From NCBI GenBank assembly GCA_044229975.1, contig JBGARZ010000006.1:128001-192000 (forward strand): 64,000 nucleotides of DNA. Reading direction: 5' to 3'. This stretch comes from Polyangiales bacterium (GTDB lineage: Bacteria > Myxococcota_A > Polyangia > Polyangiales > Ga0077539). The notes under the pieces are model-generated. The model saw nothing but the letters and a program-made list of their open reading frames with translations. It ran no database searches and was not told the origin of the DNA. Numbering within the stretch: position 1 is the first letter of the stretch; each line of letters begins with the position of its first letter. Positions 38,090-43,179 of the stretch are shown here, piece after piece. Made by a program: the position numbers and the translations under genes.

Positions 38090-39072
38090 TGCGCATCTCC
38101 GTGCTCGCGCTCGACGGCGTGTTTGACACCGGCCTCGCCAGCCTGCTCGACACCTTCGCCTTCGCCGGCACCCTCGGCCCGGGGCTCGGGCCCGGCGCGC
38201 CGCGCTTCGACGTTCGCGTCGTGGGGATGCGCCGGCGCGTCAAGACCCACCACGGCCTCCGCCTCGACGCCGCGCCGATCGACGGCCGCGCGCCCGCCTA
38301 CCTGGTGGTGCCCGCGCTGTTCGCCGCCGCGCCGGGGGAGGTGGTCGACCTGCTCGCCCGCCGCGACGTGCGCGACGCCTGCGACGCCCTCGCGGGCCAC
38401 AAGCGCGTCACCCTCGCCGCCGCCTGCACCAGCACCTTCGTGCTCGCCGAGGCGGGCGTCCTCGACGACCGGCGCGCGACCACGACGTGGTGGCTGGCGC
38501 CGACGTTCCGCGATCGCTTTCCCGCGGTGGAGCTCGACGCGACCCGCATGGTGATCGACGCCCCGGGCCGGCTGACCGCCGGCGCGGCCATGGCGCACGT
38601 CGACCTCGCGCTGTGGATCATCCGCCAGGCCAGCCCCACCCTCGCGGGCCTCGTCGCGCGCTACCTCGTCCTGGAGCCACGCCCGTCGCAGGCGCCGTTC
38701 ATCATCCCCGACCACCTCGCCCACGCCGACCCACTGGTCGAGCGCTTCGAGCGCTGGGTGCGCGAACACCTCGACGGCCGCATCTCGATGGAGGCCGCGG
38801 CGCGGGCGGTAGGGGCGAGCCAGCGCTCGCTGGAGCGGAGGGTGCGCGCCGTCATCGGCAAGACGCCCGTGGCCTTCGTGCAGGACATCCGCGTGGAGGT
38901 CGCCGCCCACCTGCTGCGCTCGACCGAGGACGACCTCGACGCCATCGCCGCGAGGGTGGGCTACGCCGACGCCACCACCCTCCGCACCCTGCTACGTCGC
39001 AAGCTCGGTCGCGGCGTCCGCGAGCTGCGCGCGAAGGGTGCGGCGCCGTTCGATGAGCGTCGCGTCGACTGA
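38089..39072 (+). CDS. GlxA-family AraC regulator (DJ-1/PfpI plus HTH)
   Basis: AAACT..LAEAGVLD.RRATTTWW; SQRSLERR; IAARVGYAD. Confidence 0.92.
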   Translation: MRISVLALDGVFDTGLASLLDTFAFAGTLGPGLGPGAPRFDVRVVGMRRRVKTHHGLRLDAAPIDGRAPAYLVVPALFAAAPGEVVDLLARRDVRDACDALAGHKRVTLAAACTSTFVLAEAGVLDDRRATTTWWLAPTFRDRFPAVELDATRMVIDAPGRLTAGAAMAHVDLALWIIRQASPTLAGLVARYLVLEPRPSQAPFIIPDHLAHADPLVERFERWVREHLDGRISMEAAARAVGASQRSLERRVRAVIGKTPVAFVQDIRVEVAAHLLRSTEDDLDAIAARVGYADATTLRTLLRRKLGRGVRELRAKGAAPFDERRVD

Positions 39073-39534
39073 AGGCGGGAGAGCGTCGAGAGCGGCGATC
39101 ACCCGCGCGCGATCCCAGGGACGTGACGTCTCGCGCGCGACGCGCAGCAGTGCGAGGCAGTCGTCGAGGTCGACCTCGCTGAGGCGCCCCAGCTTCAGCA
39201 GGATGAACAACGTCACCGTCGGCCGATGGATGCGCGCCCCGCGCCCCTGACGAAGCAGCTCCATCTCCTCTGTCCAGCCAGGGATGCGGTGCACGAAGAA
39301 GTCGGCGGCCGAGTTGAACGCCTCGGGGCTCAGCCCAAGACGCTCGGCCAGCGCCAACAGCGCGAGACGGTCTTCCCGGGAGCCGCGCAGGCTGACCAGG
39401 TCGACGTCCTCGGTCACGCGCTCGGAGAGGAACCACACGGCCGCAGCAGCCCCGCCCACGAGCAACCAGTCGCCCTCAAGCGAGTCGGTCGCTGCGTCGA
39501 TGATCGCGTCGATGCGCCCGCGGTCGAGGGACAT
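38992..39534 (-). CDS. Minimal nucleotidyltransferase (DUF6036/AbiEii-like)
   Basis: LLVGGAA, RVTEDVD, LLKL.R..E.DL.D. Confidence 0.75.
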   Translation of the reverse strand: MSLDRGRIDAIIDAATDSLEGDWLLVGGAAAAVWFLSERVTEDVDLVSLRGSREDRLALLALAERLGLSPEAFNSAADFFVHRIPGWTEEMELLRQGRGARIHRPTVTLFILLKLGRLSEVDLDDCLALLRVARETSRPWDRARVIAALDALPPSVDATLIERRRTLRAQLADAATELAT

Positions 39535-39552
39535 GCGATACGCTTAGGCGCG

Positions 39553-39867
39553 ATGCGCGACCCGTGGCAAATCCTTCACCGCGCGGGCCTTCCTCTCGCG
39601 GGCGAACGCGACGGCACGCCGCCATCCGAGTGGGAGATCGCCGACGCAACGCGCGCGATCATCGCTACCGAGCCCGCGGGGCGCGAACGAGACGCACTCG
39701 TGGCGTTCATCGACGCGTGGCGCCAGCACTGGCCGACGTCGTTTGCGCGCTCACTTCGCGACGACGCGGCGATGGTCGCGCGCTGGTCGGACTCGCATCG
39801 CGGCGACGAAGGCCGACGGCTGAAGCTGCGCCGCATCGCCCTCGCGAACCTCGCGACGACCCTGTGA
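39553..39867 (+). CDS. Small helical hypothetical protein
   Basis: 104-aa ORF filling the gap between the NTase and the ATPase. Confidence 0.55.
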   Translation: MRDPWQILHRAGLPLAGERDGTPPSEWEIADATRAIIATEPAGRERDALVAFIDAWRQHWPTSFARSLRDDAAMVARWSDSHRGDEGRRLKLRRIALANLATTL

Positions 39868-39925
39868 ACGGGCGCATCACGCATCGGGTTGACGCCCATC
39901 GCAAGTTGGCGCTCCATCCGCTCCC

Positions 39926-41251
39926 ATGCGCGTAGACCGCCTGTACCTGAAGGACACGGGACCCTTTCGCGAGCTCGACGTCGTCTTTCAGCCGAAGGTC
40001 GCGCAAGACAAAGCCGACCTGCACCTCTTCGTCGGCCCCAACGGCAGCGGCAAGACCACCCTGCTCTACGCGATCGCGGAGATGTTCTCGCTGGGACAGC
40101 TCGGCCCGTCTCGTCTCCAAAGACGGATGACGACCGGGCAGGCAAAGGTCGCCACCAGGATCGACGGGAGCACGGCCCTCCTCTTGGCCCAATCGGAGAC
40201 GGTCGGTCTTCGTTCTGGAACTGATCCGTGGAGCGACGTTCGGGTCGGCTGGGTCGGTGGAATCAACGGGGCGATCCTCTTTTCCGATGTCAGCGGGCAT
40301 TTGCGAAGTGTCCAGCTCACGTCCACCACCCCCTTGGATGCCAGCCACCGCTTCGCCTTCGCCGCATTCGCCTACGCCGGGCAGCGCGTGCTCACCGACT
40401 ACAGCCTCACCGCCATCGTCGAGCCATCACTCAGCCCCTTCGCCAACGCCCTCTCGTTCACGCACACCGTCGACACCAGCCAGCTCGCGCAGTGGATTGC
40501 CAACTCCCACGCGAAGGAAGCCTTCGCCCTCCGCGACGGCAACGAACTCGCGGCTCGCCGCTATGCCGAGGCCCGGAGCCACATCGAGAACGCCGCGCGC
40601 GAAGTAGTCGGCGAGGACGTGCGCTTCGAGTTCCGCTACGAGCCCCTCGGCGTCACCCTCCGCCGCGGGCCCACGACGCTCCCTTTCGACCTCCTCCCCG
40701 ACGGAGTGAAGTCCATCCTGAGCTGGCTCGCCGACCTCCTGATGCGCCTCGACCGCATCCCCTGGGTCGACGACACCCCGCTGCTCCAGCGGCGGTTTCT
40801 CCTCCTCCTCGACGAGGTCGACATCCACCTGCACCCCGCGTGGCAGCGCAAGGTGCTGCCGATGGTGCAGCACCTCTTCCCGAACGCGCAGGTCTTCGTC
40901 ACCACACACTCGCCCTTCGTCGTCGCCTCCGTCTCCGACGCCTGGGTCTACCCGCTATCTGTGCGCGATGGCGTCGCCACCATGGGCGCCGCAGTCCCTA
41001 CGCAGGCCGGCACCAGCTATGCGGCTGTCACGAAGTCGATCTTCGGCGTCGAGGAGGACTTCGACGTCGAGACCGAAGCCGGGCTCTCGAATTTCTACGC
41101 GCTCCGCAACGCCGTACTCGGCGGCGACCGCTCGCGGTACGCCGAGCTTCGGTCGGCCGCCAGCGCTCTTGCCGCGCGCGGCGTTGAGGTCGAGGACATC
41201 GTCGCCAGCGAGGTCGCGCAGGTCGACGCTCAGCTCCGGGCCATGCCGTGA
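39926..41251 (+). CDS. ABC-type AAA ATPase (PtuA/Septu-like)
   Basis: GPNGSGKT, LPDG signature, LLLDEVDIHLHPAWQ, TTHSP. Confidence 0.9.
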   Translation: MRVDRLYLKDTGPFRELDVVFQPKVAQDKADLHLFVGPNGSGKTTLLYAIAEMFSLGQLGPSRLQRRMTTGQAKVATRIDGSTALLLAQSETVGLRSGTDPWSDVRVGWVGGINGAILFSDVSGHLRSVQLTSTTPLDASHRFAFAAFAYAGQRVLTDYSLTAIVEPSLSPFANALSFTHTVDTSQLAQWIANSHAKEAFALRDGNELAARRYAEARSHIENAAREVVGEDVRFEFRYEPLGVTLRRGPTTLPFDLLPDGVKSILSWLADLLMRLDRIPWVDDTPLLQRRFLLLLDEVDIHLHPAWQRKVLPMVQHLFPNAQVFVTTHSPFVVASVSDAWVYPLSVRDGVATMGAAVPTQAGTSYAAVTKSIFGVEEDFDVETEAGLSNFYALRNAVLGGDRSRYAELRSAASALAARGVEVEDIVASEVAQVDAQLRAMP

Positions 41252-41874
41252 CCCCGCTGCATCGACCCGCACCGCCCGGTTTTCTCTCCGGGAAGGCGGC
41301 TGACTGGGGACGGGAGTTTGCTGCGCGGCGAGCGGCCCAACCCGGGTATGCCTTCCAATGGCGCGAGCACGAGGGCGTCGCGGTGAACCACCTGCTCTTG
41401 CGTGTACTGCTCGCGATGACTCGCGGTCACTGCGCTTACTGCGACCACTTCCAGCTCGGCGAAGGGTCCCGCGAGACCATCGACCACTTCCGACCGAAGG
41501 GCGGAGCCCGCGGGGCGCCGGAGCTCGCCTACGACTGGGAGAACCTCTATCCCGCATGCGACCTGTGCCAGCAGATCAAGGGCGACCACTTCGACGATGC
41601 GCTCCCGAGGCCCGACTCCGTAGGCTACGAGTTCCGGCGCTACTTCCTCTTCAACAGCCGCAACGGCGACATCGAGGTCAACCCGACGGCCTCCGACGCG
41701 GACCGGCGAAGCGCGTCGCTCGCGATCTCCATCTTCGGGTTCAACGAAGGCGTCAGACCCAGCGCACGCAAGCGTTGGTTCGCGAGCCACTTCGCGCCTC
41801 GTCGATGGTCTGCCCGCCGTGCGTCAGCGCTGGACACGCTGCCGTACCGCTTCCTTGCGCCGACGACCCTCTGA
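41248..41874 (+). CDS. HNH endonuclease (PtuB/TIGR02646-like)
   Basis: CAYC, IDHFRPK, AYDWENL..AC..C...K; GTGA overlap with the ATPase. Confidence 0.9.
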   Translation: MTPLHRPAPPGFLSGKAADWGREFAARRAAQPGYAFQWREHEGVAVNHLLLRVLLAMTRGHCAYCDHFQLGEGSRETIDHFRPKGGARGAPELAYDWENLYPACDLCQQIKGDHFDDALPRPDSVGYEFRRYFLFNSRNGDIEVNPTASDADRRSASLAISIFGFNEGVRPSARKRWFASHFAPRRWSARRASALDTLPYRFLAPTTL

Positions 41875-43179
41875 TCACCCGCCCCCTCGACCCCGCCGCG
41901 CAAACACCACCGCCCCCACGGCCAGCACCACTCCGAACCCCGCGAGCACCTTCGGCGAGCCCACTCCCACGCTCACCAGCGACACCGCCGACAGCACCAT
42001 CGCCACGCGCGCCATCCACTCTCCACCCGGCGCCCTGAACGGCCGCTCCAGCTCCGGCTCACTCCGCCGCAGCTTCAGCACCGCGGCCATGCTCACCAGG
42101 TACACCCCGAGCGCGCCCAGCACCGCCACCGTGATGAGCTCATCCGTCTTCCCCGAAAGCGTCGCCGCCACGCCCACCAGCGCCGACGCCCCGATGGCCC
42201 ACACCGGCGTCTGCCACCGCGGGTGCAACCCCGCCAACCCTTTGGGCAACAGCCCTTCCCGCGCCAGCGCGTACACCTGCCGTGAGCAGCCCATCACGAT
42301 GCCGTGGAAGCTCGCGACCAAGCCCAGCAGCCCCAGGTACACCATCAGGTGCGTCATCGGGTGGCCCGGCGAGAGCACCCGTCCGAGCGCGCGCGGCAGC
42401 GGCGAGTCGTCCTCCTGCAACGCCTGCCATGGCATCACGCCGCAGGTACAGATGAGCGTCCCGAGCGCCAGCGCCACCAGCGTCACGATGCCCGCGATGT
42501 AGCCGCGAGGGATGTCCCGCTTCGGGTCGACCACCTCCTCGGCGCTCATCGCCACGCCCTCCAACCCCAGATAGAACCAGATCGCGAACGGCAGCGCCGC
42601 GAACACACCCGCCACGCCCTGCGGAAACCACGGCGTCGCCAGCAGCCGCGACGCCTCCACGTGCGGCGCCGTCAGCCCACAGAACAACACCAGCTCGAAG
42701 GTCGCCAGCACCGTCACCACCAGCTCGATGGTCGCCGCGAGCGACACGCCCACCGCGTTGACGATGCCAAACACCACGAAGGCTCCCACCGCCACCGCGT
42801 TGACCGGCAACGACGGCGCTCGGAGGTGCACGTACGACCCGATGGCCCGCGCGATGGCCGGTGGTGCGAAGAGAAACTCCAGCAGCGTCGCCGCCCCCGC
42901 GAGGTACGCGCCCCACGAACCAAACGCCCGCCGCGCATACGCAAAGGGCCCGCCCGCGTGGGGAATCGCCGCGGACAGTTCGGTGTACGGGAAGATGAAG
43001 CACACGTAGAGCACGGTGATCGCGAGCGTGGCGATGCCCATGCCGACGACGCCGCCGCGGGCGAGGCCGTAGTTCCATCCGAAGTAGTCGCCGGAGATGA
43101 CCAGGCCCACCGCGATGGACCACAGGTGCAACGGCCGCAGCACCCGCTTGAGCGCAGGCGCCTCTGCCTCGCTCGTCAC
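41875..43179 (-). CDS. eat: Ethanolamine permease (APC family)
   Basis: LWSIAVGLVISGDYFGWNYG, IPHAGGPFAYARRAFG, PFAIWF; coupled to eutL. Confidence 0.9.
   Translation of the reverse strand: MTSEAEAPALKRVLRPLHLWSIAVGLVISGDYFGWNYGLARGGVVGMGIATLAITVLYVCFIFPYTELSAAIPHAGGPFAYARRAFGSWGAYLAGAATLLEFLFAPPAIARAIGSYVHLRAPSLPVNAVAVGAFVVFGIVNAVGVSLAATIELVVTVLATFELVLFCGLTAPHVEASRLLATPWFPQGVAGVFAALPFAIWFYLGLEGVAMSAEEVVDPKRDIPRGYIAGIVTLVALALGTLICTCGVMPWQALQEDDSPLPRALGRVLSPGHPMTHLMVYLGLLGLVASFHGIVMGCSRQVYALAREGLLPKGLAGLHPRWQTPVWAIGASALVGVAATLSGKTDELITVAVLGALGVYLVSMAAVLKLRRSEPELERPFRAPGGEWMARVAMVLSAVSLVSVGVGSPKVLAGFGVVLAVGAVVFARRGRGGG

Follow-up and report, generated by a model that had tools for sequence, protein, structure and literature searches.

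One system or two?

Within the window, that is, the 64,000-nucleotide stretch of a Polyangiales bacterium genome analysed here, four genes lie between a GlxA-family gene and eat, and the question that they raise is whether they work as one defence system or as two. A gene for a nucleotidyltransferase (NTase; 38992..39534, minus strand, 180 amino acids) stands head-to-head with a gene for a 104-amino-acid protein, here called the small gene (39553..39867, plus strand), across a spacer of 18 bp (GCGATACGCTTAGGCGCG, 39535..39552). After a gap of 58 bp (39868..39925, plus strand) come ptuA, for a Septu ABC ATPase (39926..41251, plus strand, 441 amino acids), and ptuB, for a Septu HNH nuclease (41248..41874, plus strand, 208 amino acids), coupled through GTGA by a 4-bp overlap. 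A sequence-only reading of this DNA had proposed a system of four genes, the nuclease being gated by nucleotidylation, and, as a fallback, a toxin-antitoxin (TA) pair stacked on Septu. Its description of the locus agrees with the sequence: the positions of the four open reading frames (ORFs), the 18-bp head-to-head gap, the 58-bp gap, the 81-bp overlap of the NTase gene with the GlxA-family gene, and the abutting stops of the HNH gene and eat (TGATCA) are all as given there.

The fallback is the better answer. We put at roughly 0.75 the probability that two independent modules stand side by side: a standalone Septu, and a likely NTase toxin with a 104-amino-acid antitoxin, the genes of the latter two being predicted to share one bidirectional promoter in the 18-bp spacer and to give leaderless mRNAs. 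The two pairs are separate in other genomes, and the NTase and the small gene are nearly always together. If this is right, a false candidate for a four-gene defence system is removed and a widespread, uncatalogued family of NTase TA pairs is exposed.

The two pairs in other genomes

According to the four-gene proposal, PtuAB is gated not by a retron but by the NTase and the small protein, and the check suggested for it was the co-occurrence of small-gene homologues with both the NTase and the ATPase and HNH genes. The halves were found to occur independently in nearly all loci examined. The window's Septu subfamily was compared at 16 other loci from 14 genomes, and none of the 16 has a small-gene homologue; in 12, the available DNA upstream of ptuA runs to 3 kb or more. 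When those 14 genomes were searched whole, the small gene was found in two, on other contigs, one copy having an internal stop. From the other side, 105 distinct small-gene loci extend 1.5 kb or more downstream, and two of them (L099 and L121) have PtuA nearby, in both cases with major facilitator superfamily DNA in the interval. L099 has a frameshifted NTase, and the remnant of a major facilitator superfamily gene lies between the small gene and PtuA; L121 has no NTase left, its small gene is truncated and three unrelated genes lie in between. Small-gene homologues do come near PtuA elsewhere, and to that extent the proposal had some footing, but in neither case is the NTase intact.

The trees point the same way. 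In a quick, unrooted tree of 151 small-gene domains (108 columns), the small genes of L099 and L121 belong to a clade of eight rows, itself part of a larger one in which the window's copy has no place; that copy groups with the small gene of a genus relative whose 1.47 kb of downstream DNA has no PtuA match. For PtuA, a grouping of the window's protein with those of L099 and L121 as one clade is rejected (approximately unbiased test, p-AU 3e-19, also a quick tree). In the two genus relatives with the pair, DNA similarity stops at the small-gene stop codon.

Some observations pull in the other direction. The small gene and ptuAB are co-oriented, and the 58 bp between them contain no TA dinucleotide and no terminator-like site. 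By eye, the 13 other ptuA upstream regions inspected all show TAnnnT at most 17 nt from the likely start, which leaves the window's ptuA alone in having no -10 of its own. The small gene and the Septu subfamily are neighbours, beside an eut operon, in one other lineage (L099, L121). Finally, a Septu-subfamily locus, L221 (6778-7802), has a different AbiEii-type NTase beside a convergent ptuA, with no ptuB match. Weighed against the counts and trees above, and against the two-gene action of Septu described below, these observations leave the four-gene system highly improbable. The NTase of L221 is preceded by a small upstream partner, which we take to be DUF6922-like.

In two distinct lineages of Myxococcota, the 3' end of an eut operon lies next to the pair, to Septu or to both (window:41875-44767; L096:8372-9313; L115:4266-5896; L121:13640-15280). 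The trees argue against a shared transfer behind this recurring adjacency.

The Septu pair

The sequence-only reading had called the ATPase-HNH pair Septu-like, and a PADLOC search bears it out. PtuA matches PDLC00281 over residues 1-434 (E 2.2e-129) as well as PF13304, and has a Walker A motif (GPNGSGKT), a Walker B motif (LLLDE) and TTHSP. PtuB matches PDLC00351 over nearly its full length (E 4.1e-53) and PF01844, with the motif order CxxC...DH...N...CxxCQ. The Gln at the final HNH position is common to a PtuB subclade; the idea that it is a lesion was dropped because five homologues carry the same CQ. Like Septu type I, the pair consists of an ABC ATPase followed by a coupled HNH nuclease; it differs from the type in belonging to a Myxococcota subfamily, in the last HNH position and in having no visible -10 of its own. 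The subfamily is patchy: apart from the window's genome, the order has it in 2 of 200 genomes, the phylum in 3 of 400 and a sister order in 10 of 147.

Retrons of type I-A (Ec78/Eco7) share the PtuAB effector pair. Here the match to the retron Ec78 PtuA model is far below its cut-off (108 bits vs 500), as the Ec78 equivalog models are in general. The absence of a reverse transcriptase (RT) from the window, already remarked in the sequence-only reading, extends to the whole of the contig, C23: the seven RVT_1 matches of the genome are on five other contigs. There is no sign of a retron at ptuAB, where the small gene fills the DNA upstream of ptuA, although Rfam was not searched. Homologous ptuAB pairs stand alone in other genomes. 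Septu functions as two genes, and in E. coli it cleaves tRNA-Tyr upon infection (PMC13096335; this and the other papers cited are quoted from the portions of their text that were available). By its sequence, then, the ATPase-HNH pair is an ordinary standalone Septu, a new member of a known system.

What may be peculiar to this genome is how ptuAB is transcribed. The 58-bp gap contains a TTGACG (39889-39894, plus strand). Since the gap has neither a TA dinucleotide nor a terminator-like site, ptuAB may rely on read-through from the small-gene promoter. Co-transcription with the antitoxin gene may accordingly be an accident of position in this genome. A sequencing run checked for expression covered only scraps of ptuA.

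The same genome has at least four further pairs of an ATPase and an HNH-like gene, distant relatives of PtuAB (C26:67146-68851, C32:840465-841447, C23:205288-206747 and C34:289721-291255). A weak RT match lies 3.4 kb from a weak PtuA-like match (C39:336471-340455). A single-copy RT is found at C38:259913-260548, and five identical RT copies elsewhere appear to be of the group II intron type.

The NTase and the small gene as a pair

Across several phyla, the NTase gene and the small gene are hardly ever parted. They are adjacent in 164 of 189 loci gathered from the NTase and small-gene sides, duplicates included. The arrangement is head-to-head in 150, small gene first in 11 and NTase first in three; 20 loci have the small gene only and five the NTase only, many of these being cut by contig ends. 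By record titles, pair homologues occur in Myxococcota, Acidobacteriota, Planctomycetota, Spirochaetota, Methylomirabilota and Oligoflexia. No fusion of the NTase and small domains was found, the long matches being opposite-strand upstream read-through or unrelated sequence, and the queries used found no NTase relatives in viral contigs or PLSDB plasmids.

The small gene is real. The sequence-only reading had allowed that 39553-39867 might have no homologs; there are 484 representatives at E<=0.001, third codon positions are the most variable (identity 0.65/0.67/0.49 at the three positions in 41 ungapped homologues), and the protein is modelled with confidence (predicted local distance difference test, pLDDT, 95) as five helices. 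It belongs to no catalogued family: no match was obtained in Pfam, PADLOC or NCBIfam, and none to AbiEi or MenA models. Nor did the fold search return a Foldseek match at E<=0.001 or a usable Atlas match, which does not by itself make the fold new; the best VIA Z score, 6.1, is among unrelated helical chains.

Outside the head-to-head loci the small domain often carries a DNA-binding domain. In 8 of the 11 small-gene-first loci, a helix-turn-helix (HTH) domain (Pfam HTH_3) is N-terminal to it. L080 comes from an Oligoflexia genome, in whose phylum the NTase is found in 31 of 201 genomes; 30 loci there comprise 25 small-gene-first operons, one NTase-first, two head-to-head and two NTase-only (one at a contig start, one partial), with an HTH on 25 of 28 small-gene frames. 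Altogether 33 co-oriented relatives have an XRE-type HTH fused to the small domain, in 32 of them upstream of the NTase, and the HTH-fused partner and the NTase are in overlapping operons. The best NCBIfam match of the HTH is the HipB-like Y4mF antitoxin model, below its cut-off. One widespread form of the pair is an operon of an HTH-fused antitoxin followed by the toxin, and the HTH is absent from the small gene in all head-to-head loci examined. The head-to-head form probably arose from the HTH-fused operon by rearrangement; the tree is unrooted.

By eye, inverted repeats cover the promoters of several HTH-fused operons, so that autorepression fits. Upstream of the HTH-fused gene in L229-L256 and L178-L186 are repeats such as ACATATTAT...ATAATATGT or CCTA-N-TAGG; these are likely operators on leaderless promoters, in which the ATG follows directly after the -10. 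A third architecture, of Spirochaete type, is seen in L083-L085, where a shortened NTase (about 130 amino acids) precedes an HTH-less partner.

The two genes are lost unequally. Among 65 loci with an intact NTase and room for the partner, the partner is intact in 64 and broken in one, the exception being a genus relative whose NTase has D45A. In 44 loci with an intact small gene, the NTase is broken in six and absent in four. The difference (1/65 vs 10/44) gives a Fisher p of 4e-4, a value overstated by the relatedness of the loci and weakened as an argument by the NTase being 1.7 times longer and by breaks that may be assembly errors. The count leaves out 25 rows without room for the partner, 14 co-oriented rows and 14 with a broken anchor gene. 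Six further intact small genes without a working NTase were found from the NTase side, and in L101, L111 and L153 the NTase is deleted, yet the spacer and the first NTase codons remain.

From such behavior the small protein is likely to be the antitoxin. It would probably neutralise the NTase by binding it; three runs of a complex prediction scored 0.71, 0.00 and 0.00 and carry no weight either way. The opposite polarity has a precedent. In MNT-HEPN (type VII) pairs a minimal NTase is coupled with a HEPN RNase bearing RX4-6H. Were the present pair of this kind, the small protein would be the toxin and the NTase would neutralise it by adenylylation. NTases serve as antitoxins in HEPN-MNT pairs (PMC7157771), and the small protein's conserved basic RxxKLRR patch could be read in that sense. 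However, an alignment of 133 partners shows no conserved His after the conserved arginines, no HEPN profile matches, and the NTase here has extra C-terminal motifs. The small domain, moreover, bears the HTH and comes first in operons, and intact small genes survive without a working NTase in the 10 of 44 loci, plus six, just described. A reversed polarity is consequently given very little credence.

The NTase as a likely toxin

The sequence-only reading had described a minimal NTase. The protein goes further than that: besides GG at 27-28 and RVTEDVD at 39-45, it has a C-terminal lysine and R117-D122-D125 that resemble those of the AbiEii/MenT type. The full motif set is G27 G28, R39-x-T41-x-D43-x-D45, K114, R117, D122 and D125. 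Counted over 120 distinct NTase homologues, G27, R39, T41, E71, N74, K114, R117, D122 and D125 are invariant (120/120), and G28 (118/120), D43 (118/120) and D45 (117/120) are nearly so. The Pfam match to PF08843 is marginal (22.6 bits vs a cut-off of 22.5), that to PF19502 is below cut-off, and Atlas links the protein at 0.98 to clusters in which 15-22% of members carry DUF6036 and 10-15% carry AbiEii; we refer to it as DUF1814-like and DUF6036-related. Against the sequences of solved structures, the NTase profile finds only 5uvd, over motifs I-II (E 0.002). The protein is nine residues longer than its eight closest homologues (171 amino acids), the extension lying inside the GlxA overlap.

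The fold agrees with this assignment. The model (pLDDT 95) resembles 5uvd (Z 8.7), MenT3/TglT (8.6) and MenT1 (8.5), with root-mean-square deviations of 3.8-5.0 over 157-164 residues; Foldseek ranks the structures similarly, with no significant E-values. With MenAT1/MenAT3 and AbiEi-AbiEii the NTase shares the fold and the motifs GG and RxTxDxD, and its Lys and DxxD appear to correspond to theirs. MenT1 relies on R37, T39, D41xD43, K137, D149 and D152 (PMC11375011). R39, T41, D43 and D45 are spaced as R37, T39, D41 and D43, which places a conserved Thr at the phospho-acceptor position, and D122 and D125 match D149 and D152. MenT1 extends tRNA 3' ends and is auto-phosphorylated on T39 when MenA1 binds (PMC11375011; PMC7450476), and AbiEii is reported to behave as MenT1 does (bioRxiv 10.64898/2026.01.19.700257). 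By analogy of fold and motifs, the NTase would probably extend tRNA 3' ends with nucleotides, in the manner of MenT and AbiEii, and its neutralisation could perhaps involve an induced auto-phosphorylation of the invariant T41. AbiEii/MenT-like in its sequence, it is likely a toxin.

Not every detail favors this. LnuA (Z 8.3) and ANT(2'')-Ia (Z 7.9) are only slightly below the 8.5-8.7 of the MenT structures and 5uvd. K114 and R117 are three residues apart, as against nine for K137 and R146 of MenT1; no residue-level superposition was obtained, and the mapping, made by motif spacing from main-text numbers, could be changed by the supplementary alignments. D43 or D45 is changed in four loci that have an intact partner. 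An alternative that draws on the first of these points is a non-toxic modifying enzyme, acting on a small molecule or an antibiotic or adenylylating a protein, with the small protein as regulator, cofactor or substrate. It would sit well with antibiotic-modifying enzymes being within one Z unit of the MenT structures, with the marginal Pfam AbiEii score, and with the neighborhood, which is not that of a defence island: the first called gene past the small-gene stop (73 loci, crude gene caller) is one of scattered housekeeping genes such as those for FtsA, MukF, adenylosuccinate synthetase, HrcA and transporters. It would not account for the overlapping operons in which an HTH-fused partner precedes the NTase, nor for the loss of the NTase where the partner stays, the reverse being hardly ever seen; and RxTxDxD, the lysine and DxxD agree with the toxin family. 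We regard such an enzyme as unlikely, though less so than a reversed polarity.

The spacer as a predicted bidirectional promoter

The conservation of the 18-bp gap went unseen in the sequence-only reading. With starts called without reference to motifs, the gap between start codons is 17-19 bp in 88 of 114 loci and 17 or 18 bp in 75; 13 of 127 distinct loci have no callable starts and are left out. Motifs were counted in 104 distinct spacers, after 10 of the 114 were set aside as duplicates or as outside 14-24 bp. A TAnnnT located 4-8 nt ahead of the start codon faces the small gene in 88 of these and the NTase in 82, and 73 spacers have one in each direction; in 1000 shuffles the corresponding counts averaged 5.3, 6.3 and 1.3 and never exceeded 12, 14 and 6. 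Shine-Dalgarno-like cores are found in only eight and four of the 104.

The two directions differ in the elements that accompany the -10. Toward the small gene, the -10 is commonly extended by TG (58/88 vs 2/82 toward the NTase). Toward the NTase, TTG occurs at -35 spacing (31/82 vs 2/88 in the opposite direction), and this -35 comes from the Trp-Gln/Lys/Glu codons of the small gene, read on the other strand. The codon after Trp ends in A in 52 of 76 cases, compared with 63 of 256 other Gln, Lys or Glu codons near the N terminus and 175 of 872 in the rest of the gene, and in 48 of the 52 it is 16-18 nt from the TA. No codon-embedded -35 is present in the 11 co-oriented loci.

In the window, the predicted -10 toward the small gene is TACGCT (39539..39544, plus strand), 8 nt before the ATG. 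Toward the NTase, a weak -10, TAAGCG (39541..39546, minus strand), is predicted 6 nt before the ATG, and a -35, TTGCCA (39565..39570, minus strand), is predicted 18 nt from this -10 in the reverse complement of the Trp5-Gln6 codons. It counts against the prediction that, in the window's own spacer, the -10 facing the NTase does not end in T. A strict promoter scan (at least 9 of 12 consensus matches) found nothing in 38900-42000.

Overlapping -10 elements, with start sites mostly 18 or 19 bp apart, are characteristic of bidirectional promoters (bioRxiv 10.1101/2020.01.31.928960; PMC12825309). The start codons here are at the published start-site distances, so that both mRNAs would begin at or within 1-2 bases of their start codons. 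Unlike the published sigma-70 promoters (Warman, Forrest, Wade and Grainger), this one is predicted to give two leaderless mRNAs, to have one -35 encoded in the partner's codons, and to keep its geometry across several phyla for a single gene pair. The word 'toxin' does not occur in PMC12825309. Among 5823 head-to-head candidates in the genome, five have TAnnnT both ways and none of these is at 17-19 bp, a weak control because the crude gene caller missed the window's own pair. Leaderless expression as such would be unremarkable here, as leaderless-type motifs precede 834 ORFs of the genome (an uncontrolled count). The 18-bp gap is accordingly predicted, from its motifs, to be a conserved shared two-way promoter, in which one symmetric -10 region would serve both genes.

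A more ambitious version of the TA reading can be framed on these elements. RNA polymerase would compete for two directions at the symmetric -10, and the pair would belong to a TA family that has shed its repressor domain and is balanced through promoter geometry only, with a helical antitoxin of new fold that causes T41 to be auto-phosphorylated. Since the toxin -35 would lie inside the antitoxin's first codons, damage there would also silence the toxin. We hold this version tentatively and at less than even odds.

Comparison with known TA systems

Like MenA1 (PMC7450476), the small partner in the head-to-head form has no DNA-binding domain. In contrast to MenA and AbiEi, it matches no AbiEi (COG5340) or MenA model and is found either fused to an XRE HTH or alone. 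Gene order also differs: MenT is downstream of its antitoxin (PMC7450476), while the pair here is head-to-head, with 11 + 25 co-oriented relatives that are operonic. A literature search found no paper with DUF6036 and none on a head-to-head type II TA system with a divergent promoter; most subscription journals were outside its coverage, so that absence from print does not follow. Our verdict is that the pair is probably a variant of the NTase TA systems whose partner domain is uncatalogued and whose promoter architecture is both unusual and strongly conserved.

Its interest lies in the coexistence of two architectures in one family: an operon autoregulated through an HTH, and a head-to-head pair that does without a repressor on about 18 bp. 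Such a family would be a natural experiment in TA balance with neither operon nor repressor and a compact test case for bidirectional promoters. It would also test whether antitoxin-induced auto-phosphorylation extends to another, unrelated antitoxin.

Genome setting and neighboring DNA

The genome is of 10.0 Mb and about 71% GC. The block of four genes is only slightly lower than its surroundings in GC and in GC at third codon positions (GC3, 0.82-0.87 vs 0.87-0.95 in the neighbors). The sequence-only reading had taken it for an inserted block, and this stands in part. The eat-eut cluster is present in all eight genus relatives, and eat is followed by another gene, common to six of the seven examined. 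No target-site duplication and no terminal or flanking repeat was found around the block, and a clean empty site was not seen because the left-hand neighbors sit on other contigs in the relatives.

To the left, the ABM and GlxA-family genes (window:37683-39072) have no close DNA match among the matches listed for the eight genus relatives, which gives them the look of another accessory module, the third in this patch. A 41-bp inverted repeat (window:37563-37662; 93% complementary, 18 nt loop) lies between the ABM gene and that for the hydrolase, with similar DNA in a genus relative; it is possibly an element like the repetitive extragenic palindromes or a two-way terminator. To the right, in the genus relatives L195-L201, the gene after eat ends in a Fis-type HTH and is presumably a sigma-54 activator, and one relative has a 2.4-kb insertion at the same point after eat.

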